DNA of 64,000 bases, taken from positions 1,888,001 through 1,952,000 of the forward strand of contig OZ241875.1 of the NCBI GenBank assembly GCA_965203325.1, written 5' to 3'. Shown here in pieces: positions 9,260 through 64,000 of the stretch. The notes below the pieces were generated by a model, which did not search any database, had not been told where the DNA came from, and worked only from the letters and a program-made list of their open reading frames with translations. This DNA comes from a bacterium. GTDB lineage: Bacteria; UBA8248. Within the stretch, counting starts at the first letter, position 1. Each line of letters starts with the position of its first letter. The position numbers and the translations under genes are program-made.

Positions 9260-10252
9260 TTGGCCAGATACCTCGTCACGGGCGCTGCGGGCTTCATCGC
9301 GTCCAGGGTGTGCGAATTCCTGTTGGATGATGATCACGCCGTCGTGGGTATCGACGACATGAACGACGCCTACGACACCCGACTGAAGGACTACCGCCTC
9401 GCGCGCCTGAAGGCGCGGCCCGGTTTCGTTTTTCACGAAGCCGACATCACTCGTTCCGACACCCTGCGCGCGCTGTTCGCAGAAAACGCCGGAGGCGGCG
9501 CCCCGCCTTTCGACGCCGTTCTGAACCTGGCCGCGCGCGCTGGCGTGCGGCAATCCATCGAGAATCCCTGGGGCTATTTCGAGACCAACGTCACCGGCGC
9601 ACTGAACCTGCTCGAACTCTGCAAGGATTTCGGCGTCACCAAGTTCGTGCTCGCCTCCACCTCGAGCGCCTACGGGGCGGATACGCCCTCGCCTTTTCGG
9701 GAGGACGCCCCGACCGACAGGCCGCTTTCCCCCTACGCGGCTTCCAAGAAAGCGGCCGAGGCGCTCTGCCACACATACCACCACCTGTTCGGGATCGACG
9801 TGAGCGTGCTGCGCTACTTCACCGTCTACGGCCCGGCGGGGCGGCCCGACATGAGCCTGTTCCGCTTCACGCAGTGGATAGCCGAGGAAAAACCCGTTCT
9901 CGTCTATGGCGACGGTAAGCAGTCGCGCGATTTCACCTACGTGGACGACATCGCCAGAGGCACGATAGCGGCCATCAGGCCGGTCTCTTATGAGATCATC
10001 AACCTGGGATCGGACGAGCCCGTCGTCTTAAGCGACGCCATCGCCCGCATCGAAACCCTCACGGAGAAGAAGGCCCGGATTCGTTATGAGGAGAGCAACC
10101 CCGCCGACGTCAAGGCCACCTGGGCGAACATCGACAAGGCGGAAAGACTCCTGGGCTGGCGACCCCGAGTGAGGCTCGCAGACGGCCTCGCGCATCTGGT
10201 GGAGTGGTACGCCGCCAACCGCGAATGGGCGAAAGAGGTGCGCACCGACTAG
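9260..10252 (+). CDS. UDP-glucuronate 4-epimerase-like NAD-dependent epimerase
   Basis: TGAAGFI, LAARAGVRQS, YAASKK, RYFTVYGPAGRPDM, RDFTYVDD. Confidence 0.88.
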   Translation: MARYLVTGAAGFIASRVCEFLLDDDHAVVGIDDMNDAYDTRLKDYRLARLKARPGFVFHEADITRSDTLRALFAENAGGGAPPFDAVLNLAARAGVRQSIENPWGYFETNVTGALNLLELCKDFGVTKFVLASTSSAYGADTPSPFREDAPTDRPLSPYAASKKAAEALCHTYHHLFGIDVSVLRYFTVYGPAGRPDMSLFRFTQWIAEEKPVLVYGDGKQSRDFTYVDDIARGTIAAIRPVSYEIINLGSDEPVVLSDAIARIETLTEKKARIRYEESNPADVKATWANIDKAERLLGWRPRVRLADGLAHLVEWYAANREWAKEVRTD

Positions 10253-10354
10253 TAAAACCGTTCTCTCCGGCGAATTTTCCCCGACCGTTACCCCTTCGGG
10301 GCGCGATGCACTAGACTCACTGAATACTTTCACCTGTATACGGCAGGAGACGAC

Positions 10355-11395
10355 ATGAAGGCGATGGTATTGGCGGAGCCGGGCGCGCCGTTCGTTCTGG
10401 AAGAACGGCCCATCCCCGTGGCGGGGCCGGGCGAGGCCGTGGCGCGCGTGCTGGCCTGTGGTTCGGGGCTTACAATCGAGCATACCCGGGCGGGCCGCAT
10501 GGGCGGGAATTTCCCGCTCGTGATCGGACACGAAATTACCGCAGAGATCACGCAGGTGGGCGCGGGCGTGGAGGGCCTCAGCGAGGGCGCGCCCGTGACG
10601 GCGTATTATTACTTCACCTGCGGGCGCTGCCGCTGGTGCCGCGTGAACCGCGAGACCCTGTGCGAGAACCTCGCCGGGCAGGTCGGCCGCCAGGTGGACG
10701 GCGGCTACGCCGAGTACATCAAGCTGCCCGCCCGGAATTTCATCCCCCTGCCCGAGGGGCTGGACTACAAGGCGCACCCCGCCGAGGTCGGCGTCATCTC
10801 GGACGCCATCGCCACGCCGTATAAGGTGTTACGCCACGCAGGCGTGCGCCCCATGGAGAACGTTGCCGTGGTGGGCGCGGGCGGCGGCGTGGGAATCCAC
10901 ATGGTGATGATGGCGCGCTGGGCGGGCGCGCGCGTCATCGCCGTCGACGTGACGGCGGACAAGCTGGGCAAATGCCGCGACATGGGCGCGCACGACGCGG
11001 TGGACGCCTCTCAAGAGAACCTGGGCGAGGCGTTTCGGGATTTGACCGGTGGCGCGGGCGTGGACGTCGTCGTCGATTTCGTCTGCACCGCTGAGGGGGT
11101 CGAGGGCGGCCTGCGCGGGCTGGGCAAGGGGGGCCGCTTTCTCGCCATGGGGGCGAACCGGATAGAACGGTTTCCGTTCTCTCCGCGTGAGTTGCTCCGC
11201 GAGGAGCAGCAGATCATGGGCAGCCGCTACGCCAATAAACAGGAGGTCATCGACTCGCTCGAACTCGTGGCGCGCGGCGATGTCTGGCCCCTGGTGAGCG
11301 AGACCTATCCGCTCGAAGAAGCCAACCTCGTGCACGAGCGCTTGCGTGAGGGCCGAGTCACCGGACGCGCCGCCCTAGTAATGTCTCAAGAATAG
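10355..11395 (+). CDS. Zn-dependent alcohol dehydrogenase (MDR)
   Basis: GHE motif, structural Zn site CGRCRWC..C, GAGGGVG. Confidence 0.9.
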   Translation: MKAMVLAEPGAPFVLEERPIPVAGPGEAVARVLACGSGLTIEHTRAGRMGGNFPLVIGHEITAEITQVGAGVEGLSEGAPVTAYYYFTCGRCRWCRVNRETLCENLAGQVGRQVDGGYAEYIKLPARNFIPLPEGLDYKAHPAEVGVISDAIATPYKVLRHAGVRPMENVAVVGAGGGVGIHMVMMARWAGARVIAVDVTADKLGKCRDMGAHDAVDASQENLGEAFRDLTGGAGVDVVVDFVCTAEGVEGGLRGLGKGGRFLAMGANRIERFPFSPRELLREEQQIMGSRYANKQEVIDSLELVARGDVWPLVSETYPLEEANLVHERLREGRVTGRAALVMSQE

Positions 11396-15042: not shown

Positions 15043-15381
15043 ATGGAAATTAAGACTGAGCAGGAAAGCGGGACGTTGGTCGTGCAGGTTGACGGCCGCA
15101 TCGACGGCGCCACCGCCCCGGATTTCGAGAGCACCATCAAGAACGTAATCAGCGAAGACGACCGCGCCGTCATCGTTAATTTCGAGGGAGTCTCGTATAT
15201 CAGCAGCGCCGGCCTCCGCGCCGTTCTTCTCGTCGCCAAGCAGCTTAGTCAAAGCAACACGAAGTTCGCCCTGTACGCGCTCGGAGAACTGACGCGCGAG
15301 GTTTTCGAGATATCCGGCTTCGACCGCATCATTCAGATCCACAACTCGAAAGCGGACGCCCTCGCCGCGACCGCGAACTGA
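15043..15381 (+). CDS. STAS-domain anti-anti-sigma factor (RsbV/SpoIIAA-like)
   Basis: GRIDG.TAP.FE, VSYISSAGLR (phospho-Ser), EVFEISGF. Confidence 0.92.
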   Translation: MEIKTEQESGTLVVQVDGRIDGATAPDFESTIKNVISEDDRAVIVNFEGVSYISSAGLRAVLLVAKQLSQSNTKFALYALGELTREVFEISGFDRIIQIHNSKADALAATAN

Positions 15382-15525: not shown

Positions 15526-17715
15526 TCACCGCGGCAATTCGACGATCATTTCCGTGAATTCGTCCGGCTCGGTTTCGACCCGTATGTTTCCCCCATGCTG
15601 ACGAATAATGTCGCTGGATAGAGAAAGGCCGAGCCCGGTGCCCTTGTCCGTCGGCTTGGTCGTGAAGAAGGGGTTGAATATCTTCTCGACGACCTCAGGC
15701 GGCATCCCGCTCCCGTTGTCGCGAATGCGGACCTCGATGCCGTCCGGCCTGCACCTGGTAACGAGCTTCAGCGTGGGATCGTAGCGCGGCGCATCTTCGA
15801 CAGAGGCGACTTTTTGCCGTTTCTCATGGGTGGCGTAGCAGGCGTTGCTCACCATGTTCAGGAAGACGCGGCCCAGATCCTGCGGAATGACCTCGCATTC
15901 CACCATATCCGGATCCAAATCCCAATCGAGCGTGAGGTTGAAATTTGGGTCTGCCGCCCGTGCGCTGTGGTAGGCGAGGCGCGCGTGTTCGTCGAGCAGG
16001 GTGTTGATGTTGGTCGGCTGCGCCTCTCCCGAACCCCTGCCCATCTGGAGCATGCTCTCCACGATGTTGTTGGCCCGCTCCCCGTGTTCGCGGATGCGCT
16101 GGAGGTTGCCGGTGAGGTCTTCTCCGATTTCGGTGATGAGCTCGATCGGATCCTCTTCGTCCTGCTTTTTCTCCTCCTTGTCCTCCTGCGGTTCCTGCCC
16201 GTTTTCCTGCCCGTTGCCGCCGTGAGCCGCCATCTTCTCCAACTCTTCCATCAACTCCTCCATCAGCTCTTCGGAGACTTCCGAGAAGTTCTTGATGAAG
16301 TTCAGCGGATTTCTGATCTCGTGAGCCACGCCCGCCGTCAATTCACCGAGCGCCGCGAGTTTTTCGCGCATGACAATCTGATCCTGCGCCTTTTCCAGAT
16401 CGCCGAGCGCGCTTTCGAGTTCCTCGTTTTTGCCCTTGATCTCCTCGGCCAGTTTCTCCACCAGGTTGAGGCGCTGCACCTCCAAGGCATGGCGGCGGAA
16501 GATTTCGAGCGCTGCGGCCATTTCCGCGACTTCGTCCTGCCCGCCGATATCGACTTTCTCCTCCAGATCGCCGTCGGCCATGCGGCGCATGCGGTCCGAG
16601 AGCCGACCGAGTCGACGCGAAAGCACACGGCCGATGAACAGCCAGCCGATCAGCACGGCGCCGATGAAACTGATGGCGCTCAGCGCGAGCAGGATGTTGC
16701 TGCCGGTGCTGATGGCCTGGGCGGAATCCTGGGTGGCCTGCTTCGCGCTCTTGCGGGCCGTGCCCACCAGCGTTTCGGTGGCGGCCAGAATTTTCGCTTC
16801 CTGAGATTCGTGAAACGCGAGCAACTCGCCCTGTTTCCTCTCGAGCGCCAGTTCACGCGCGCGCAGATTGAAACCGCCATCCTCCCCGATGCTCAACTCG
16901 ATCATCTGTTCGAAGAGAGGCTCGAGAGCCGCGCGCACCGGAACCTTTCCAAGCGCGTTCATACGCCGCCGGATACCGCGCGCCGTGGCCTCGAAGCGCT
17001 CGCGCAACGGCTCGATCTGGGCGGCGTCCGATACGCTGAAAGCGGTGGCGAGAAGCTGGGTCGCGATAGTGGCGTCCGACCGCAAGCCGGCGATGTAGCG
17101 GTAGAGGTTAAACCCCTCCTCCGAGAAGTGCTTTTCACGGGGAACGGGCGCCGCGTCGATTTTGCCGTAACCCGTCATCGCGTAGAACAACTGATCGTCG
17201 ATGGCGGGAACCATGACGTTGTTCAGCTCCTTGCGCACCCATGTGAGCTGGAGTTGCAGGGTATCGCGCAGATCGGTGAGATCGAAGCGCTGCAGCACCA
17301 ATCGTTTGATGGCATTGAGGTTCTCTATCAGCACGTCTCCGAGCTTCTTGATGCGCAAGGAGATTTCCTCATTCCCTTCCTGGCGAATCAGCGCCGCAAG
17401 CGCCGTCTCGAACGCCTCCTGGTCCTTGGCGACCTCGGTGGCTATTTGGTCCAGGATGTCAGGGTTCACCACTGCGGCCAGCCGCGGCGCGGCGGCCACC
17501 AGGGCGGTGCTCTCCTGGGCGATTCCGAAGGCGCTCGCCAGGAACGGGACGGTGCCTTCGTTCACGCGGTTCTGCACCTCGCCCACGAACCCGAACGAGA
17601 CCCATGCAACCACGCTCGCGATGACGGTGAGAGAAGCGGCGGCGCCGATGCTGAGGTAGAGTTGCGTCGATATCTGGTAACGCTTGTCCAGGAGGTTCTT
17701 CAGCGCGCTTTTCAT
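15526..17715 (-). CDS. Membrane sensor histidine kinase with TorS-like periplasmic helical sensor and HAMP domain
   Basis: Two TM segments, HAMP (DEVAEMA), H-box AGVAHEIRNPLN, N-box, DNGSG, FNPFFTTKP.KGTGLGL; ATGA overlap with the upstream gene. Confidence 0.9.
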   Translation of the reverse strand: MKSALKNLLDKRYQISTQLYLSIGAAASLTVIASVVAWVSFGFVGEVQNRVNEGTVPFLASAFGIAQESTALVAAAPRLAAVVNPDILDQIATEVAKDQEAFETALAALIRQEGNEEISLRIKKLGDVLIENLNAIKRLVLQRFDLTDLRDTLQLQLTWVRKELNNVMVPAIDDQLFYAMTGYGKIDAAPVPREKHFSEEGFNLYRYIAGLRSDATIATQLLATAFSVSDAAQIEPLRERFEATARGIRRRMNALGKVPVRAALEPLFEQMIELSIGEDGGFNLRARELALERKQGELLAFHESQEAKILAATETLVGTARKSAKQATQDSAQAISTGSNILLALSAISFIGAVLIGWLFIGRVLSRRLGRLSDRMRRMADGDLEEKVDIGGQDEVAEMAAALEIFRRHALEVQRLNLVEKLAEEIKGKNEELESALGDLEKAQDQIVMREKLAALGELTAGVAHEIRNPLNFIKNFSEVSEELMEELMEELEKMAAHGGNGQENGQEPQEDKEEKKQDEEDPIELITEIGEDLTGNLQRIREHGERANNIVESMLQMGRGSGEAQPTNINTLLDEHARLAYHSARAADPNFNLTLDWDLDPDMVECEVIPQDLGRVFLNMVSNACYATHEKRQKVASVEDAPRYDPTLKLVTRCRPDGIEVRIRDNGSGMPPEVVEKIFNPFFTTKPTDKGTGLGLSLSSDIIRQHGGNIRVETEPDEFTEMIVELPR

Positions 17716-18899
17716 CTCTTCTCCGGCCGCCGGATTTTTTCGGTCGGGATGTAGCGGCCGCCCTCGCCGACGACGGTGAGGAAAACGGCGTCCGAACCCT
17801 GGTTGTCGTCTTTGCCGAAGCGGAGCTTGAATCCGCCGAGGTCGATGGTGGCCGCGCGTCGCAGGCTTTTCAGAAGACAGTTGCGGTCGGGCTTGCGCCC
17901 GCACAACTCGAGGGCGCGAATGGCCAGTCTGCCGGCCATGTAGCCCTCGAATGAGACGAAGCTGGGAGTCGCGCCGGGTTTGTGAGCCTCCAGGTCCCGC
18001 CGGTAGTCGGCCGCGATCTCGAGATTCTCCATCGTCGGGAACGGAACCACCTGCGTGACGTAGATACCGACGCCGGCGGGGCCGAGTTCACGTACGAGCG
18101 CATTGCTGCCCACGAAGGATATTGTTACGAAAATCGGATTGAACCCCGTATGGCGCGCCCACGCGATGAAGGAGGCGACCGGTTTGTAGGCCCCCACGAG
18201 GACCACCGCTGCGGGGTCCGCGCGCCTGATGTCGAGCAGGGCCGTTTTGACCGCCGTCGTATTCCGTGGATAGACTCCGGTGACCGCCGGTTTCAGTTTG
18301 CGCCGCTCCAGGGCGCGGCGAACGCCCCGGTAGCCCGCCAGACCGAAAGAATCGTTCTGGTAGAGCACGGCGATCTTCTTGACGTCCAAGTCCTTGATCA
18401 GGCGATCTACTATCTCCTCGGTCTCCTGGAAATAGGAGGCCCGCAGGTTGATCACGTTCTTCCATTTGGGATCGCGCAAGAAGGCGGCGCCGGTGAAGGG
18501 CGCGATGTAGGGGACGTTCGCTTTTGCGGCGACCGGCGTGGCCGAGCGCGAGGTGGGCGTACCGACGGCCCCGATGAGCGCGAAAACCTTGCTCTGCTCT
18601 ATCAGCCGGCGGGTGTTCAGGATGGCGGCTTCGGGTTCATACGCATCGTCGAGGGATGTGAGTTCGAGCCGGCGTCCGTGAACGCCGCCGCGCTCGTTCG
18701 CCGTGCGAAAGGCGGCTTCGACCCCGAGACGCATTTCCTCGCCCAGAGCACTCGCGGGACCGGTGAAGGCGGCGGATTGACCGAAAAGAACCCGGTCAGG
18801 AGAAACCCCGGGCACGGCCGCCTGCGCCCCCGACGCCGAGCAGATTATCGCTGCAGCAAGGAGGATAAACGTCCGGCGGATTCGGAGCGGGAGGCTCAT
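17712..18899 (-). CDS. Type 1 periplasmic (Leu/Ile/Val-like) ligand-binding protein
   Basis: Signal peptide; GQSAAFTGP, GGVHGRRLEL..LDDAYEP, GAVGTPTS, LYQNDSFG. Confidence 0.9.
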   Translation of the reverse strand: MSLPLRIRRTFILLAAAIICSASGAQAAVPGVSPDRVLFGQSAAFTGPASALGEEMRLGVEAAFRTANERGGVHGRRLELTSLDDAYEPEAAILNTRRLIEQSKVFALIGAVGTPTSRSATPVAAKANVPYIAPFTGAAFLRDPKWKNVINLRASYFQETEEIVDRLIKDLDVKKIAVLYQNDSFGLAGYRGVRRALERRKLKPAVTGVYPRNTTAVKTALLDIRRADPAAVVLVGAYKPVASFIAWARHTGFNPIFVTISFVGSNALVRELGPAGVGIYVTQVVPFPTMENLEIAADYRRDLEAHKPGATPSFVSFEGYMAGRLAIRALELCGRKPDRNCLLKSLRRAATIDLGGFKLRFGKDDNQGSDAVFLTVVGEGGRYIPTEKIRRPEKR

Positions 18900-19315
18900 T
18901 CACTCCTCCGCTTGACAAGGCGCATATGGTTCTTGTTCTCCTCCCGTCGATAAGTCACATCGTCCATCATCGTCCGCACCAGGTGGATACCGAGCCCGCC
19001 CACGGCGCGGTCTTCGATGCCCGAGTCGGTGTCCGGTTCGGGCGCGTCGGTCAGGGGATCGAACGGACGGCCGTCGTCGATGATATCGATGATCACCGCC
19101 TCCGCGTCCGAGATGAGTTCGATGCTGATTTCCCCCTCTCCGCCTTCGCTGCCATGATGTACGACGTTGAGAATCAACTCTTCGAGCACGAGGTCGACCT
19201 GGAATTCGATGTCGGGCGGCCAGTCCTGCTCCCGGCTGAATTCCCCGATGGCGGACTGGATGCGCGGGAGATCCGAGGCCTCGAATCCCATTGTCAAAGA
19301 AAGTTTCGCGCTCAT
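18896..19315 (-). CDS. RsbW-like anti-sigma factor Ser kinase
   Basis: EELILNVVHHG (N-box), DDGRPFDP, GGLGIHLVR. Confidence 0.92.
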   Translation of the reverse strand: MSAKLSLTMGFEASDLPRIQSAIGEFSREQDWPPDIEFQVDLVLEELILNVVHHGSEGGEGEISIELISDAEAVIIDIIDDGRPFDPLTDAPEPDTDSGIEDRAVGGLGIHLVRTMMDDVTYRREENKNHMRLVKRRSE

Positions 19316-20529
19316 TCACTCACTCCACGGCGAAAAAGGGTCAGGCAAGTAATATCATCGAATTGAGGCGCTTTGCCCGCGAATTCCTTTACATCCTCAA
19401 AAACCTTCGTGTTGATCTCCCGGGCCGAGGCCGGCGACGCCCCCCCCAGAATCTCCCGGAGGCGGTCGAGGCCGAACTGCTCGGTCTTCTCGTTCTCCGC
19501 CTCCGTGACGCCGTCAGTGTAAAGGACGAGGGCGTCACCGGGGGCGAGAGTCGCATTGTACATGTCGTAACTGAACTCGGGCGCGATCCCGAGGGCGACG
19601 CCCGGATCCTGGGAAAGCAGGCTCGATGAGCCGTCGGCGTGAAGGACGAGCGGGGGGTTGTGCCCGCCGTTGGCGTAGACGAGTTCCCCGGACGTGGAGT
19701 CGTAAATGGCGAAAAAAACGGTGACGAACATCGCGGCCTCGTTGTTCTCCTGAAGCAGGCGGTTCACCTCGCTCAACACATCACCGGGCCGGAGCAGACG
19801 GTTCACCTCACCGAGCACATCGCCCGGATTGGCGCGAGCGACAGCGACGCTGTTGAGCAGCGTGCGGCTCGACATCATGAAAAGGGCGGCGGGCACCCCC
19901 TTGCCGGAAACGTCGGCGACCGTGATGCCGATGCGGCCATCGGACAGGTCTATCACGTCGAAGAAATCACCCCCTACGTCGCGGGCGGGCTCCATGCCCC
20001 CGAATATCTCGTAGTGGGGGCTTTCGGGGAATTTCGTCGGCAGAATCGATTGCTGCATCTTGCTGGCCAGGTCGAGGTCGCTCCTCAGGGCGACCAGCTT
20101 GTCGCGCGCCTCGAGCGCTTCGCGCAGCATGGCGAGGTGCTCCAGGGTCCGTTCTATGGTGATCCGCAAATCCTCGAAATCGATCGGCTTGGTGACGAAG
20201 TCGAAGGCGCCCCTGTTCATCGCCGTCCGGATGTTCTTCATGTCCCCGTACGCCGAAACCACTACGGAGCGCACGTTGGGGTCAACCGAGGGGATTTGCT
20301 TGAGCAGGGTGAGGCCGTCCATCTCCGGCATGTTGATGTCCGTGAGCACCATGTCGATAGGGTCGCCGCCATCGTTATCGTTCAAGCGCTCGAGCGCTTC
20401 GACCCCGTTGCGGGCGAAGACGAACGAATAGCGGCCTCTTCGTATCTCGCGCCGCATGCGCTGCAACACGAGCTGCTCGAGATCGGGCTCGTCGTCGACC
20501 ACGAGTATCCTGTGGGGTTCCTCCATCAC
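19312..20529 (-). CDS. Response regulator-PP2C (SpoIIE/RsbU-like) phosphatase
   Basis: REC (VVDDEP, TDINMP, KP) plus VGGDFFD, ADVSGKG, NGGHNPP, YTDGVTEA, DDIT. Confidence 0.93.
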   Translation of the reverse strand: MMEEPHRILVVDDEPDLEQLVLQRMRREIRRGRYSFVFARNGVEALERLNDNDGGDPIDMVLTDINMPEMDGLTLLKQIPSVDPNVRSVVVSAYGDMKNIRTAMNRGAFDFVTKPIDFEDLRITIERTLEHLAMLREALEARDKLVALRSDLDLASKMQQSILPTKFPESPHYEIFGGMEPARDVGGDFFDVIDLSDGRIGITVADVSGKGVPAALFMMSSRTLLNSVAVARANPGDVLGEVNRLLRPGDVLSEVNRLLQENNEAAMFVTVFFAIYDSTSGELVYANGGHNPPLVLHADGSSSLLSQDPGVALGIAPEFSYDMYNATLAPGDALVLYTDGVTEAENEKTEQFGLDRLREILGGASPASAREINTKVFEDVKEFAGKAPQFDDITCLTLFRRGVSE

Positions 20530-20966
20530 TGTCTCCCTTCCGCCAACATCTTGTCGCGCGCCTCGAAGGCTTCCCGCATCGACTTGAGATGCTCCAAAGA
20601 CTTCTCGATGGTAAGCCGCAAGTCCTCGAAATCAATCGGCTTGTTCAGGAAATCGAATGCGCCCCTGTTCATCGCCGTCCGGATGTTCTTCATGTCCCCA
20701 TACGCCGAGACGATGACACAGCGGAGCTTGGGGTCGAAAGCGGGGATTTGCTCGAGCAGGGTGAGGCCGTCCATCTCCGGCATGTTGATGTCCGTAATGA
20801 CGATGTCGATTTCATCGTCATTGTTTAAGCACTCTAGCGCCTCGACCCCGTTGCGGGCGAAGACGAACGAATAGCGGCCGCTGCGAATTTCGCGCCGCAT
20901 GCGCTGCAGCACCAGACCTTCAAGATCGGGTTCGTCGTCGACTACGAGTATCCTGTGCGAATCCAT
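20526..20966 (-). CDS. Single-domain response regulator, close paralog of the REC domain of the downstream phosphatase
   Basis: VVDDEP, TDINMPEMDG, KP; long DNA identity to 20140-20520. Confidence 0.9.
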   Translation of the reverse strand: MDSHRILVVDDEPDLEGLVLQRMRREIRSGRYSFVFARNGVEALECLNNDDEIDIVITDINMPEMDGLTLLEQIPAFDPKLRCVIVSAYGDMKNIRTAMNRGAFDFLNKPIDFEDLRLTIEKSLEHLKSMREAFEARDKMLAEGRQ

Positions 20967-21359
20967 CGTCCGGGTCTCTCCATCGCTTAGGCTTCATCCG
21001 ACCAACGATCGAGCACTTTCGAATTCCAGCTAAATGTATATAAGACTCACGCGGCGCGCAACTCATTTCTCACTCCGCCTCGTGCCCGAACGAACCTGCG
21101 CGGCGGCCTGCAACCCCCTGAAACCATGGCTTCACCGGCGACCGCTCCCGGCATGAGGCCGCTCGGCCGCCGGATTTCGTCCATACCGGTTTCTCTTCCC
21201 GCGAGCATCCAGACCTCCTGAACCCATGAGGCGATTCCGCGCCGAATGTGGGTAAAGCGGCGAAAATTTCATCCGCCGCCCGGTTGTCCAGGCCCTCGGG
21301 TTCGCGTATCTTGGTGGACGAAGCGCCGCCATGCGCGAACCACCAGAGGAATCCCTGCT

Positions 21360-21947
21360 TTGACCCGTAAACCCAAAAGCAAAAAGAAAGGCGCAAGAGC
21401 CGCCGGAAGAAGGGCTCCGCGCCCGGCGAGAACCATTGGCTCGAAGAAGAAAAGCGCCGCCCCGTTCGTGTGGGCGATCGTCATCGCCGCGGTCGCAATC
21501 GGCATCTACTACTTTACGGGCGCATCGGCGAACAAGGCGCGCGACGTGCCTTCCCTCGGCAACCGCCACATCCGCGTGGGCACGAGCGGCGCCGTCGCCT
21601 ACAACACGGACCCTCCCACCTCGGGGCCTCACTATCCGACCATCGTCCCCTGGGGCGTACACTGGAAGCCGATCGACAAAGGCTTCCAGGTCCATAACCT
21701 CGAAGACGGCGGCGTGCTCGTGCAGTATGGCTGCGGCGATTGCCCCGAACTCGTGAAAAAACTCGAGAAAATCGTACGCGGCTACCCGAAGTTCGTCATC
21801 CTCGCCCCGTACCCGCCGATGAAACACAGAATCGCGCTCACCGCCTGGGGCAAGATAGATACGCTGGAGACTTTTGATGAGAAGCGCATCACCGCCTTCA
21901 TCGACGCCTATCGAGGCCTCGACCACCACCCGCGGGGGAGGAGATAG
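21360..21947 (+). CDS. DUF3105 family membrane-anchored protein
   Basis: TTG after GAGGA; TM helix; YNTDPPTSGPHY, VHNLEDGGV..QYGC, IALTAWG. Confidence 0.8.
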   Translation: MTRKPKSKKKGARAAGRRAPRPARTIGSKKKSAAPFVWAIVIAAVAIGIYYFTGASANKARDVPSLGNRHIRVGTSGAVAYNTDPPTSGPHYPTIVPWGVHWKPIDKGFQVHNLEDGGVLVQYGCGDCPELVKKLEKIVRGYPKFVILAPYPPMKHRIALTAWGKIDTLETFDEKRITAFIDAYRGLDHHPRGRR

Positions 21948-22054: not shown

Positions 22055-23827
22055 TCAACCCCCTCCGCCGCCGGCCGCGCCCGGAACCTCCACGCGCAGG
22101 GTCACGATGTCCGTGTCGTGGTATTGCTGGTGGTGAACCGAAGACGCGAGGTGGCGCAGCAGTCTGAGCGAGACTTCGCGCTCAATCGGGGAGCCTGCGG
22201 TCTGCTCGCCGAGCAGCGCGATTTTGTCCTGGAGGTTCTCCTCTCCGCCCGCGGCGACGAACTCCAGCACCGCGCCGCCGTCTTCTTTATGCGCCACCAT
22301 GAGCAGACGCCGCCGCTTGCGGCTCTCGTCGGCTTCGTCGGGGCGCAGGAGCGTCAGCAGCGTTTCCTCGCCCGCGGCGTCGAGGCGATGCGCCATCGCC
22401 TCATCCCAGCCGCTGGCCGAGGCGAACTCACCGAGAAACTCCCTGATCTTCGGCAAGGCGGAGATGTCGAACGCCACCTCGATACGGCTGCGGCGCGGTT
22501 CGGTGAATTCGACGAACAAGGTCATGATCATGGCGACGAGGCCGCCGGCCGTCATTCCGTTGTTCAAAAGGCCGCCCGCGAACGTCGAGAAATACTCGGG
22601 ATATATGACGCCGTTCTGGAAGCCGACACCCGCCCAGAACGCGACGCCCGCCACCAGCCCCTTGCGGTAGTCGATCCCGTCGTGAACGACCATCCGCATG
22701 CCGACCACGAAGAGCATCGCCAGCAGCACAGTAATGTAGGCCGCGGCGACCGGCCCTGGTATCGCCAGTACCACGGCGACCAGCTTGGGAAGAAACGCCA
22801 GGGCGAGGAACACCAGCCCGGCGGCGACTCCCACGCTGCGCGCGCCGACGCCGGTGAGTTCGGTGACGGACACGCTCGTCGAATAGGTCGTGTTCGGCAC
22901 CGTCGCCAAAAGGCCGGAGAGCAGGTTGCCCACTCCGTCGGCGGCCACCGCGCCCTGCACCGCCTTGAAGTCCACCGCCCGGGGCCGCCGCCAGGATACG
23001 CGCTGGATGGCGGCGCCGTCGCCGACCGTCTCGATGGCGCCGATGAGAGTCACGAAAATGAATCCCGGCAGAAGCGTCCAGAAAACCGGCCCGAAGCTCA
23101 AGTCCAGGCCCGGCCATGCGCCCCGTGGAAGACCGATCCATGAAGCTTCAGCGACGCGGGCCGTATCGTAGATGCCGAAATAGAGTCCGACGAGCGAGCC
23201 CGCGGCCACGCCGATCACGGGCGCCCACAGGCGCAGCGCGCCCGTCGCCTTGAGCGCGATGCCGACGATGACCACCGCCGACACGAACGCGCTCAGCGGA
23301 GCAGCGAGCGGGGAAGCGTCCTTGGGCGCGTCATCGAGCATGCCGAAGACGATGGGCATCACCGTCACCGCTATCAGCATGATGACGGTTCCCGCGACGG
23401 TCGGCGTCAGCACCCGCCGGAACAGTGAGAGACGCTCCGAGAGCACGAACTGAAAAAGCGAGGAGGCGAGGACGAGCGTGGCGAGCATCCCCGGCCCGCC
23501 CTTGGCGAGCGCCGCGATGCAGACCGCGATGAAAGCGCCCGATGTGCCCATGATGAGCACGTAGCCCGCGCCGAAGCGGCCGACCCGGAACGCCTGGAGC
23601 ATCGTGGTTGCGCCGCAGATCGCCACCGCGGCGAACACCGCCCACGAGAGATAGTCCTCGGTACCGCCGGCTGCGCGCACCACGATCGCGGGCGTGAACA
23701 CGATGCCGCCCACGCAGAGGACGGCGAGTTGCAGGCCGAGGCCGAACGCGAGCAGGGGCGGCGGTTTCTCGTCGGCCTCGTAGCGTACGTCGGTGTTCGC
23801 GCGCTGGTCGGCGTTTTCGGCGCTCAT
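22055..23827 (-). CDS. NCS2 (xanthine/uracil) permease with a C-terminal degenerate RsbW/HATPase-like domain
   Basis: GLGLQ, TPTVAGTVI.LI, IETVGD, ADGVGN...G, PNTTYSTS motifs; about 145-aa soluble tail resembling the local RsbW. Confidence 0.85.
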   Translation of the reverse strand: MSAENADQRANTDVRYEADEKPPPLLAFGLGLQLAVLCVGGIVFTPAIVVRAAGGTEDYLSWAVFAAVAICGATTMLQAFRVGRFGAGYVLIMGTSGAFIAVCIAALAKGGPGMLATLVLASSLFQFVLSERLSLFRRVLTPTVAGTVIMLIAVTVMPIVFGMLDDAPKDASPLAAPLSAFVSAVVIVGIALKATGALRLWAPVIGVAAGSLVGLYFGIYDTARVAEASWIGLPRGAWPGLDLSFGPVFWTLLPGFIFVTLIGAIETVGDGAAIQRVSWRRPRAVDFKAVQGAVAADGVGNLLSGLLATVPNTTYSTSVSVTELTGVGARSVGVAAGLVFLALAFLPKLVAVVLAIPGPVAAAYITVLLAMLFVVGMRMVVHDGIDYRKGLVAGVAFWAGVGFQNGVIYPEYFSTFAGGLLNNGMTAGGLVAMIMTLFVEFTEPRRSRIEVAFDISALPKIREFLGEFASASGWDEAMAHRLDAAGEETLLTLLRPDEADESRKRRRLLMVAHKEDGGAVLEFVAAGGEENLQDKIALLGEQTAGSPIEREVSLRLLRHLASSVHHQQYHDTDIVTLRVEVPGAAGGGGG

Positions 23828-24063
23828 GTCGTATCCTTCGCGGCTGGAAAATGGATCCGTCGCCGATCGCAAACCCTGTTTCGATGTCCTCGCAACGGAG
23901 CGTAAGTTTCTCACACCCTTTTCGGCCCCTCAAGAAAAAAGGCCCGCAAAGGATATCGACGGGCGAAAACCGACAAACCTGCGGTATTTTCAGGCGAATA
24001 TCGTGGTTTCGGGGGTTTTGGGTACGGAAATCGCACTTTTTTCGGTGCATGAATACATTTTTG

Positions 24064-24240: not shown

Positions 24241-24528
24241 GTGAAAACTGTAGAGGAAGTACGCGAAGAGATTGTCAAAAAAGCAAGCGAGAACGAGGCA
24301 TTCCGCGCCGAATTGGTGGCCGACCCCAAGGTCGCCATTGAAAAGGAATTGGGAGTCACCATTCCCGAGGGGTTCAAGATCGGCGTGCACGAAGACAACA
24401 TCATGAGCATCAACCTGGTGCTGCCGCCGGCCGAATTGAGCGAGGAGGAACTGAGCGCCGTCGTGGCCGGAGCACAGATGTGGCAAGAATTCGCCAACGC
24501 CTGGAACAGCTTGAACCAAAACTCCTGA
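24241..24528 (+). CDS. NHLP (nitrile hydratase-like leader peptide) RiPP precursor
   Basis: IVKKA..NEAFRAELVADPK.AIEKELG..IP....I.VHE......LVLP..ELSEEELSAVVAG leader; core AQMWQEFANAWNSLNQNS; GTG start after GGAG/GAGG. Confidence 0.9.
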   Translation: MKTVEEVREEIVKKASENEAFRAELVADPKVAIEKELGVTIPEGFKIGVHEDNIMSINLVLPPAELSEEELSAVVAGAQMWQEFANAWNSLNQNS

Positions 24529-24723
24529 TACGATATATCCAAATAGAGCAACAGTCCATTCGGTCGGTTCGCCGAAAAGCCCCGGGAAGGGGATGGTTCG
24601 GGACGTCGCTTTGCGGGTTGGAACCGCGCTGCGGCCCGCTTCGCCGAAGGGAGGCCGGGGTGTCGCGCTTGCTCATCGCCGCGTTGCCCCCAATGTAGGC
24701 GTCCCGCTCGGAAACAGGGTTCG

Positions 24724-25821
24724 ATGATGTCTGAGAATTTCGGGGACGTCTTTCCAAGGTTGCGCCGCTTCGTTCCACCGGCCTTACTCGACGGCCCGTG
24801 GTGGGACCGCCTGGTGGAGCGCGTCGGTGAACTTCCGAGTTGGCTGACTCTGAATTACGCGGCCTTCGAGTTTCGGCTGGGAGACCCTGCGCCCGCCGCC
24901 GATTATTTCGTCTCGGTTGCGCCGGGGCGTCCGTCCATGGAGTATTACGTTCGTCTGGGCGAGGCCGCAAAACCCGACTCCGCGGAGGCGGCTCTCGGCC
25001 GCGTCTACGCTCTCATGAACGGAGCGGGCCCCCCTTCCGAATCATCTCTCACCGGCTGGTTCAGGGCGTCGATGCTCGAATACGACATCGCGGAAGTCCC
25101 CCCGGACCTGCGCCCGGCCCCGGGCGTGTTCCTGGCGCTCAAGCCTCAATCCGAACTGGATGAAGACGTCGCGGGCGCAAGAACGCCCCACCGCCTGGCC
25201 GCCACCATAGCGAACGCGGTCGGGTGGGAGGAGGACGAGGCGGAGCGTCTCGCCGTGGAGCGGGCCTTCGCCGCCTTGCCCGGCAGCGGCGTGGTGGATC
25301 AGATTGGCGCCGCCCCCGAGCGCGGGCCGCGCCTGATTCGCCTGATCGTGGACGGGTTGAAACTGCGCAACGTGCCCGCATTCCTGAAACGGCTGAAATG
25401 GGACGGCTCCACCCGGAAAGTGATGGACACGCTGGAGGAGATGCGCGATATGACGCCCATCTTCCGGATGGCGCTGGACGTCTCCGCGCACGGCGTGGGG
25501 CCGCGCCTGGGTCTCGAGATGTACAGGCCGAGAAGCCCCTCGGACCTCGACTACTGGCTGACTTCGGGGCGCAACGCCTGGCGTCCCGTCGTGGACTACC
25601 TCGAAGAGATGAAATGGTGTCTGCCGGAGAAGGGGGACGGCCTGCGGGCGTTCCCGGGAATCGAGAGGCTCTTCGAGGAAAAGGGCATGTCCATCCTCTA
25701 CAAGGGAATCAACCACTTCAAGCTCTCGATCGAGGGCGACGCCGTAGAAGCCAAGGCCTACGCCGCCCTCGCCTACTTCCGGCTCTACGCCGACTCGGAG
25801 GGTGAGTCGGAGCAGGGGTAA
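24724..25821 (+). CDS. Hypothetical RiPP maturase, putative ABBA-fold (PT-barrel) prenyltransferase
   Basis: 365 aa directly after the precursor; five helix-helix-beta-hairpin units ending NHFKL..EAKAY; fold inferred by eye. Confidence 0.55.
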   Translation: MMSENFGDVFPRLRRFVPPALLDGPWWDRLVERVGELPSWLTLNYAAFEFRLGDPAPAADYFVSVAPGRPSMEYYVRLGEAAKPDSAEAALGRVYALMNGAGPPSESSLTGWFRASMLEYDIAEVPPDLRPAPGVFLALKPQSELDEDVAGARTPHRLAATIANAVGWEEDEAERLAVERAFAALPGSGVVDQIGAAPERGPRLIRLIVDGLKLRNVPAFLKRLKWDGSTRKVMDTLEEMRDMTPIFRMALDVSAHGVGPRLGLEMYRPRSPSDLDYWLTSGRNAWRPVVDYLEEMKWCLPEKGDGLRAFPGIERLFEEKGMSILYKGINHFKLSIEGDAVEAKAYAALAYFRLYADSEGESEQG

Positions 25822-63636: not shown

Positions 63637-64000
63637 CTACACGCCCAGAATCTTCTTCGCGCACTCCCGCGCCTCATCCAGGGTCTCGACGACCCGCTCC
63701 CCGGGCGCGTCGCGCAGAACGTCGAACGCGCGGAGGGTGCGCGCGACGTCGCCCGCCAAGCCCATCACGATGAACGCCGTGCGCTCCTGCGCGGCGACGT
63801 CCATGAGCCGCCTGATGAGCATGGCGGCGCTGTCGTCGAGATGCTTGGCGCCCGTGAAATCGAAGATGACGACCTCGTGGTCCTTGATGTCCGCGCTGAT
63901 GGCCGCGACCAGCTCGTGCGATGAGGCGACGGTGAAGCTGCCCCGGAGCGACACCAGGCCGACGCGCGCCGCATAGGGGTTCACCTCGCCTGCGTCTTTC
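63637..64000 (-). CDS. C-terminal STAS domain of a probable SulP family transporter (truncated by window edge)
   Basis: LRGSFTVAS, VVIFDFTGAKHLDDSAA, FIVMGL...V..TL. Confidence 0.7.
   Translation of the reverse strand, partial: KDAGEVNPYAARVGLVSLRGSFTVASSHELVAAISADIKDHEVVIFDFTGAKHLDDSAAMLIRRLMDVAAQERTAFIVMGLAGDVARTLRAFDVLRDAPGERVVETLDEARECAKKILGV

Follow-up and report, generated by a model that had tools for sequence, protein, structure and literature searches.

The family closest to the SulP/SLC26 transporters, members of which end in a STAS domain, is that of the NCS2 permeases, according to an extract of PMC3988826, and kinase-negative homologues of the anti-sigma kinase RsbW that act by binding are known (extract of PMC7693655). 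Here, we describe a protein in which these two themes appear to meet: an NCS2-type permease whose core is followed by ~145 residues with a C-terminal RsbW-like domain (hereafter the tail, taken as the last 151 amino acids [aa]). Its gene lies in a 64,000-nucleotide stretch of contig OZ241875.1 of GCA_965203325.1 (positions 1,888,001 to 1,952,000 of the forward strand), which is called the window below; the host bacterium (lineage UBA8248) is a probable sponge symbiont. The original prediction, made from the sequence alone, held that a degenerate RsbW domain had been joined to a nucleobase permease and that it connects solute transport to a neighbouring partner-switching circuit. The analysis presented here assigns the tail, in its modelled structure, to the anti-sigma-kinase fold, finds its ATP-binding motifs replaced throughout a large family of permeases, and leads us to lean, by a modest margin over an even chance, towards a built-in regulatory or assembly domain of the transporter that acts via protein contacts and possibly through a remodelled pocket.

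Predicted fold of the permease tail

The tail had been aligned by eye with the RsbW encoded in the window. The tail text quoted for this purpose is found in the translation of the permease gene (Table 1), and BLASTP returned the same 46 residues, at 28% identity and with an E-value of 1e-6 for this single comparison. With hhalign, a profile of 46 tails matched a profile of 25 RsbW homologues at a probability of 84.5% (E 7e-6, 76 columns), and matched one RsbW taken singly at 71%. Hidden Markov models (HMMs) found the relationship in both directions, the tail HMM retrieving 16 RsbW open reading frames (ORFs; E 2e-5 to 2e-3) and the RsbW HMM retrieving eight ORFs of distant permeases (E 4e-5 to 2e-3). 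When the 46 tails were scanned singly against Pfam (E<=10), ten of them matched HATPase_c_2 (best E 8.9e-6), the sole family to be matched by more than one tail. The same Pfam model picks up the tail within a 616-aa frame of one distant genome, and the ESM atlas offers a weak lead in that PF13581 (HATPase_c_2) is found in 15% of the members of its rank-2 cluster.

The window tail itself gave no match to PF13581 at E<=1, its gathering score not being reached, and no other Pfam or NCBIfam family was returned at this threshold except for a sub-threshold DUF5691. This last candidate was rejected on its score (18.3 bits, cut-off 27) and its occurrence in only one of the 46 members, while PDB sequence matches to designed armadillo-repeat proteins and D-Ala ligase, and profile matches to GAL4 and centrin, were set aside as compositional or due to chance.

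An AlphaFold2 model of the tail, computed from the 46-sequence alignment, has a mean pLDDT of 83.9 and a pTM of 0.79; its elements follow the order beta-alpha-alpha-beta-beta-alpha-alpha-beta-beta, and its single low-confidence loop falls at the place of the ATP lid of GHKL domains. The top Foldseek matches in the PDB are UsfX, SpoIIAB and RsbW (E 8.5e-7 to 2e-4, probability 1.00). In VIA-align, the highest Z-scores were obtained with UsfX (15.6 for 8ih8_C; 13.5 for a second entry, 8jzt), Bacillus subtilis RsbW (15.3 for 6m37_C, and 14.6), the RsbW domain of Rv1364c (14.5 for 3ke6_B) and SpoIIAB (13.6-13.7), followed by SiaB (11.2) and histidine-kinase CA domains (at most 7.3). The drop in Z-score from the anti-sigma kinases to every other GHKL domain assigns the tail to the anti-sigma-kinase subgroup. 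The RsbW-like GHKL/Bergerat fold that had been proposed was, therefore, borne out by AlphaFold2, Foldseek and VIA-align (Z 13.5-15.6), and on the strength of these models the assignment of the tail to the RsbW/SpoIIAB/UsfX fold is secure.

Loss of the ATP-binding motifs and conserved residues of the tail

In the 25 RsbW homologues, N50, D80-D81-G82 and G106-G109 are invariant. A joint MAFFT alignment equates RsbW E46 with tail E49 and RsbW N50 with tail T53, and sets D80/D81/G82 opposite tail G89/E90/E91 (A86-A87-G88 according to hhalign, with D80 = A86); G106/G107 stand opposite a gap, and L108/G109 correspond to V113/S114. In an alignment of 217 tails, T (67%), S (19%) or A (4%) but never N occupies position 53, positions 86-88 read A, A and then a variable residue (G/T/P), and the glycine box (GxxG) is absent from all of them. 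The loss of the N-box Asn, DxG and GGLG motifs reported for the window tail is, therefore, real by both alignment methods and by the survey of the 217 tails. The tail is devoid of ATP motifs and 'pseudokinase' is, therefore, a fair description of the domain; on this sequence evidence, it cannot be a canonical kinase.

The tails possess a set of conserved residues of their own. E48, E49, E83, N92, D95, S114, R116, R119, H120, S124 and H127, together with L117, L118 and a QQYH run, are 92-100% conserved in the 217 tails, and E49, the equivalent of RsbW E46, is invariant. The conserved polar residues would sit, as judged by secondary-structure position only, on the elements that line the GHKL nucleotide cleft.

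The membrane core and the spread of the family

The membrane core passes the gathering score of PF00860 (149.5 bits, cut-off 27) over 373 matched residues. It does not reach the NCBIfam models TIGR00801 (NCS2 superfamily; 170.6, cut-off 291.8), pbuX (190, cut-off 414.15) or NCS2_1 (39.9, cut-off 40). As all of these scores lie below the curated cut-offs, the permease is, in terms of its sequence, a divergent NCS2 protein. Where the NAT signature motif is expected, the sequence reads ...TYSTSVSVTELTG..., so that the usual Q/E-N has presumably been replaced by T-S and the nucleobase substrate named in the original prediction is not assured. A short, conserved, basic linker (E-x-T-x-P-R-R-x-R; E1 100%, P5 80%, R6 94% and R9 88% in the 217 tails) follows the last membrane helix and precedes the RsbW-like domain, which spans ~135 residues. 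The longest ORF of the gene (22055..23914, minus strand, GTG start at 23914) would encode 619 aa; homologues are mostly 580-590 aa long, in keeping with the 590-aa product of the ATG start, and the coordinates given in Table 1 therefore fit.

It had been assumed that NCS2 permeases normally lack such a tail. Within this subfamily the assumption does not hold, since the tail is usual there and thousands of proteins carry it: a search restricted to the tail returned 2666 proteins at E<=0.001, PF00860 is carried by 119 of the 120 best matches, and when representatives at 50% identity were searched exhaustively, 587 clusters were obtained. The identity of the tail to that of the window protein (70.4% over 131 full-length homologues) is on a par with that of the core (70.6%), and among the 14 most distant homologues the values are 44.1% and 41.0%, respectively; by this measure of sequence conservation, the tail is integral to the transporter. 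Of the apparent short forms, some at least are fragments, a 152-aa match to the tail clustering with a 591-aa protein. Fusion of the permease with the neighbouring rsbW was considered and rejected, given that the whole family shares this old fusion and that identity to the neighbour is only 28% over 46 residues. The precomputed Pfam annotation of all 120 best matches lists the other domain only, and no description of an NCS2/RsbW-like fusion was found in open-access papers or bioRxiv. The family represents a common domain architecture that is overlooked by present annotation.

Within the phylum of the window, the tail occurs in 21 of 51 genomes, namely the window's own, 19 of its 22 congeners and a single genome of another family (85-88% identity). 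Outside the phylum, copies with 60-73% identity are found in metagenome-assembled genomes (MAGs) of at least six phyla, several of them from sponges. The 80 closest genomic loci are from MAGs labelled Nitrospinota, Alpha- and Gammaproteobacteria, Binatia, Thermodesulfobacteriota, Opitutales and Gemmatimonadota; several of their titles name sponges, and most of the titled genome records are MAGs. The distribution over phyla and the 85-88% identical copy in another family suggest, at the level of sequence, that the tail-bearing permease has spread horizontally among sponge symbionts.

One metagenomic protein (P0016, 423 aa) carries an N-terminal integrase Arm-type DNA-binding domain (PF13356) followed by the last membrane helices and the permease tail; this chimera probably arose by integration or truncation in one of the metagenomes.

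Proposed role of the tail

In the reading that we favour, the tail is not a kinase and would act as a built-in cytoplasmic regulatory or assembly module of the transporter, the NCS2 counterpart of the STAS domain found at the same position in SulP/SLC26. It would work by protein contacts. RsbW-type proteins are dimers, and the tail could likewise dimerise beneath the membrane part. The eleven polar residues listed first among the conserved positions may form a remodelled site that takes the place of the ATP site. Proteins of the STAS-type partner-switching toolkit may provide an input to the tail in some lineages, including the genus of the window; such coupling would be optional and not the function that defines the domain. 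No neighbour family is common to more than 13 of 65 permease loci, which, as far as gene neighbourhoods can tell, speaks for there being no obligatory partner gene.

Linkage with partner-switching genes

The main rival to a built-in module is the role put forward in the original prediction, namely that of a transceptor whose tail docks the STAS protein of the adjoining module of receiver-PP2C phosphatase (RR-PP2C), RsbW and STAS. Transport state would then feed partner switching or, conversely, the phosphorylation state of the STAS protein would control transport. We consider this unlikely on balance, although it stays alive through recurrent adjacency.

The fold of the tail is that of a STAS-binding protein family, and the RsbW that lies 2.7 kb from the permease is the only stand-alone HATPase_c_2 gene of the genome (four genome matches, one of them in a small frame). 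Among the 19 other tail-bearing genomes of the genus, 18 have tail and RsbW on a single contig, no more than 5 kb apart, the nineteenth being split across contigs. The permease gene of L118 and L119, the basal members, is co-directional with the RR-PP2C gene and lies ~96 nt upstream of it. Beyond this clade, a 67% identical permease (L175) is abutted by a convergent RsbW gene, followed by STAS, RR-PP2C, binding-protein and kinase genes, in a module that is differently ordered from that of the window and whose proteins are 32-48% identical to their counterparts there. A second locus of that lineage (L181), with the same upstream synteny, holds a 5'-truncated permease gene that has kept its tail (9821-10495, plus strand, 224-aa ORF) and is adjoined by an intact convergent RsbW gene (10607-11050, minus strand). 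At L152, RR-PP2C and RsbW-like ORFs are located ~7 kb upstream of a 58% identical permease, and at L190 a Pfam-confirmed STAS gene is positioned ~200 bp upstream of a 46% identical permease, divergently and beside a polyketide synthase (PKS). Finally, in a table of PMC3908369, a SupE-like permease on a Plakortis fosmid, next to SwfA, is flanked on either side by 'anti-anti-sigma' genes.

Other observations speak against this rival. An opposite-strand DUF3105 gene intervenes between permease and rsb operon in the window, and a terminator-like hairpin with a T-run stands 3' of the permease stop codon in L118. The STAS genes of L190 and of the fosmid may belong to the adjacent PKS operon. No STAS, RsbW or PP2C gene was found within ~10 kb at 147 of the 151 loci that lie outside the clade of the window (all 66 genomic loci, by phmmer and HMM screens, 72 of 76 metagenome loci and nine of nine loci of genus paralogues). 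In Pfam scans of small flanking ORFs, none of 150 (of 171) from loci L019-L075 matched STAS, HATPase_c_2 or SpoIIE, and among 150 (of 170) from the metagenome loci, a scan that left out L135, L136, L186 and L188, only genes of L175, L181 and L190 matched. No partner-switching genes lie beside the paralogue in the window's own genome. L007 and L012, which belong to the window's clade or border on it, do not have the rsb cluster; the L012 genome, 96% complete, encodes a tail with 85% identity but lacks RsbW and gave a single weak match to STAS. The rsb operon is intact, and the tail gene absent, in three genomes of the genus (94-99% complete). Of five distant complete genomes, none has a stand-alone RsbW or STAS gene beside the permease, and in four of them the nearest such gene is more than 250 kb away; in genome G003, a 117-aa STAS frame lies ~38 kb from the permease and a weak 33-bit HATPase_c_2 match (356-aa frame) ~30 kb from it.

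Co-occurrence with rsb genes, which had been suggested as a check, thus holds within the window's genus and is not general elsewhere; the predicted link is seen in the 18 genomes and at L175/L181, L152 and L190, and is missing from the 147 outside loci. As operon and permease each occur in the absence of the other, a general or necessary association is not supported by these gene contexts. A co-fold of the tail with the STAS protein of the window gave scores of 0.11 and 0.09 (mark 0.32) and, being without controls, counts neither for nor against docking.

The recurrence of the linkage nevertheless weighs against a module that serves the transporter alone. On a FastTree phylogeny of 161 permeases, for which support is SH-like (Shimodaira-Hasegawa-like) only and in which long branches meet near L190, the linkage appears at four separate places. 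Stand-alone STAS and RsbW genes number 23 in 25 Mb across six genomes, and immediate adjacency was seen at three of the 151 outside-clade loci (two if L175 and L181 are counted as one) against ~0.28 expected, a figure that comes from rough, post hoc arithmetic on loci that are not independent. Such recurrence is a hint that the tail has a STAS partner outside the transporter and does not serve a wholly internal role. Divergent tail-bearing permeases also occur in tandem, with three copies in L131 (8729-16120), which fall in different clades of the permease tree, and two in L159 (8729-12306); the four associations need not, therefore, be independent, and differential loss is possible.

The tail is a candidate target for partner-switching modules without a sigma factor, whose outputs in Gram-negative bacteria are mostly unknown.

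A related and somewhat more speculative idea takes up the symmetry between the two sister transporter families: SulP proteins end in a STAS domain and this NCS2 subfamily in a kinase-dead RsbW domain, and the tail might capture unphosphorylated STAS, either free or perhaps that of a SulP transporter. The permease would then be directly an output, or an input, of partner switching without sigma factors, and would couple solute transport to phospho-signalling in symbiotic bacteria in a new way.

Less probable still is a small-molecule sensor, in which the remodelled pocket would bind a cytoplasmic metabolite, a nucleotide (in a non-canonical manner) or a metal, and gate transport as feedback. 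The high conservation of the polar residues on the nucleotide-cleft elements and of the QQYH run, and the invariance of the Glu equivalent to RsbW E46, are in line with such a site, but the conserved charges could equally pair in salt bridges within the domain or make up an interface with another protein. It is very improbable that the tail is an anti-sigma factor tethered to the membrane, where it would sequester a sigma factor: the best structural matches of the tail are indeed anti-sigma factors, including the kinase-negative UsfX type, but no Sigma70-family match was found among 300 small flanking ORFs (up to 210-230 aa) and no sigma gene is present in the rsb cluster of the window.

The built-in module, with possible partner-switching input in certain lineages, remains the reading that we prefer.

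Gene neighbourhood in the window

The STAS, RsbW and PP2C neighbours named in the original prediction are present as described, according to Pfam (Table 1). In 35 homologues of the STAS protein, S54, S55 and G57 are invariant; the genome encodes three stand-alone STAS proteins. The DUF3105 gene is syntenic in 13 loci, and a 365-aa ORF upstream of the permease gene (24241-25821, plus strand), which matches no Pfam family, is syntenic in ten related loci. The receiver that is encoded on its own is a close paralogue of the receiver domain in the RR-PP2C protein, each query matching both ORFs at ~E 1e-70. As L118 and L119, basal in the genus, are without this extra receiver, it looks from its sequence like a recent tandem duplication.

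Table 1. Coordinates of the features described in the text (positions in the window unless a locus is named)
Feature	Position	Strand	Details
NCS2-type permease with C-terminal RsbW-like tail, whole gene	22055..23827	minus	590 aa from ATG at 23827
Membrane core (Pfam Xan_ur_permease)	22622..23740	minus	residues 30-402, E 1.4e-43, 149.5 bits
Kinase-dead RsbW/SpoIIAB-fold domain (predicted)	22088..22489	minus	protein residues ~447-580, tail residues 8-141
STAS protein, anti-sigma-antagonist type	15043..15381	plus	Pfam STAS E 1.4e-20; convergent with kinase gene
HAMP-HisKA-HATPase_c histidine kinase	15526..17904	minus	Pfam; start probably downstream of 17904
Periplasmic binding protein (Peripla_BP_6), within operon	17712..18899	minus	Pfam E 1.7e-58
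RsbW-type kinase	18896..19315	minus	N/G1/G2 motifs intact; Pfam HATPase_c_2 E 1.9e-25
Receiver-PP2C (SpoIIE-type) phosphatase	19312..20529	minus	SpoIIE E 1.2e-54, Response_reg E 6.6e-24
Stand-alone response-regulator receiver	20526..20966	minus	Response_reg E 5.1e-26; first rsb-operon gene in sub-lineage
DUF3105 gene between permease and rsb operon	21246..21947	plus	Pfam E 2.2e-26; opposite strand
Sup-like cassette ORFs of L003	9271-10170, 10667-12397, 12654-13394, 13889-19933 (in L003)	all minus	

Three further STAS matches are located in tandem frames of 545-565 aa that run from the end of the window (~63670-63966, minus strand) into the adjoining sequence (C1:1951670-1955816). These frames, ~40 kb from the RsbW-tailed permease, are probably SulP-type transporters with a C-terminal STAS domain. 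Among the metagenome loci, L149, L151 and L152 share a common arrangement, in which the permease is followed by a 102-aa ORF, a PEMT/ICMT-type methyltransferase, a leucine-rich-repeat (LRR) protein and a NUDIX hydrolase.

A second copy in a Sup-type polyketide synthase cassette

The window's genome possesses a second copy of the permease, with a 60% identical tail, at locus L003 (C1:2812000-2831999). This copy stands in a cassette that comprises an alpha/beta hydrolase, the permease, a phosphopantetheinyl transferase (PPTase) and a 2014-aa methylating PKS (MT-ER-KR-ACP-KS-AT). The same PKS cassette is found at 15 or more of 78 metagenome loci, and in L203 its genes occur on a single strand in the order PKS, PPTase, hydrolase, permease. 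No such PKS/hydrolase/PPTase cassette is present beside the window copy or at its 80 closest loci. The cassette permease bears the name SupE in the extracted table of PMC3908369, and we infer that SupE (ABE03914) belongs to the tail-bearing family; PMC4245539 contained nothing about SupE. Since the cassette copy of L003 carries the RsbW-like tail, the 'permease' of Sup-type PKS cassettes would carry it as well. The long-known, functionally unsolved Sup cassettes of sponge symbionts would thereby have, in their 'permease', a testable regulatory domain.

Comparison with known systems

The window permease has the Xan_ur_permease match in common with the nucleobase permeases PbuX, UraA and RutG, but scores under the cut-off of every NCBIfam model for them. 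With SupE of the Sup cassettes it is connected through its own-genome paralogue, which occupies a cassette of that kind, whereas the window copy is located outside any such cassette.

With RsbW, SpoIIAB and UsfX (HATPase_c_2), the tail shares a predicted fold across the whole domain (100-122 aligned residues), and it has kept the Glu of the N-box helix; similarity in sequence resides chiefly in the opening strand and the pair of helices after it. In contrast to these proteins, the tail is fused to a 14-helix-type permease, its family lacks the N-box Asn, the G1 DxG and the G2 GxxG motifs and has its own conserved residue set, and the window tail falls under every Pfam threshold. The RsbW1 and RsbW3 proteins of Mycobacterium smegmatis and UsfX of Mycobacterium tuberculosis, as they are presented in the extract of PMC7693655, have the RsbW fold and bind their partners without phosphorylation, and UsfX is the best structural match of the tail. 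These proteins are soluble and stand-alone, with known sigma or STAS partners, whereas the tail is part of a permease. In its overall layout, the tail-bearing NCS2 protein resembles SulP/SLC26, in that a membrane part is followed by a cytoplasmic domain from the partner-switching toolkit; SulP/SLC26, however, carries the STAS fold, while the tail-bearing NCS2 permeases carry that of the opposite partner, RsbW.

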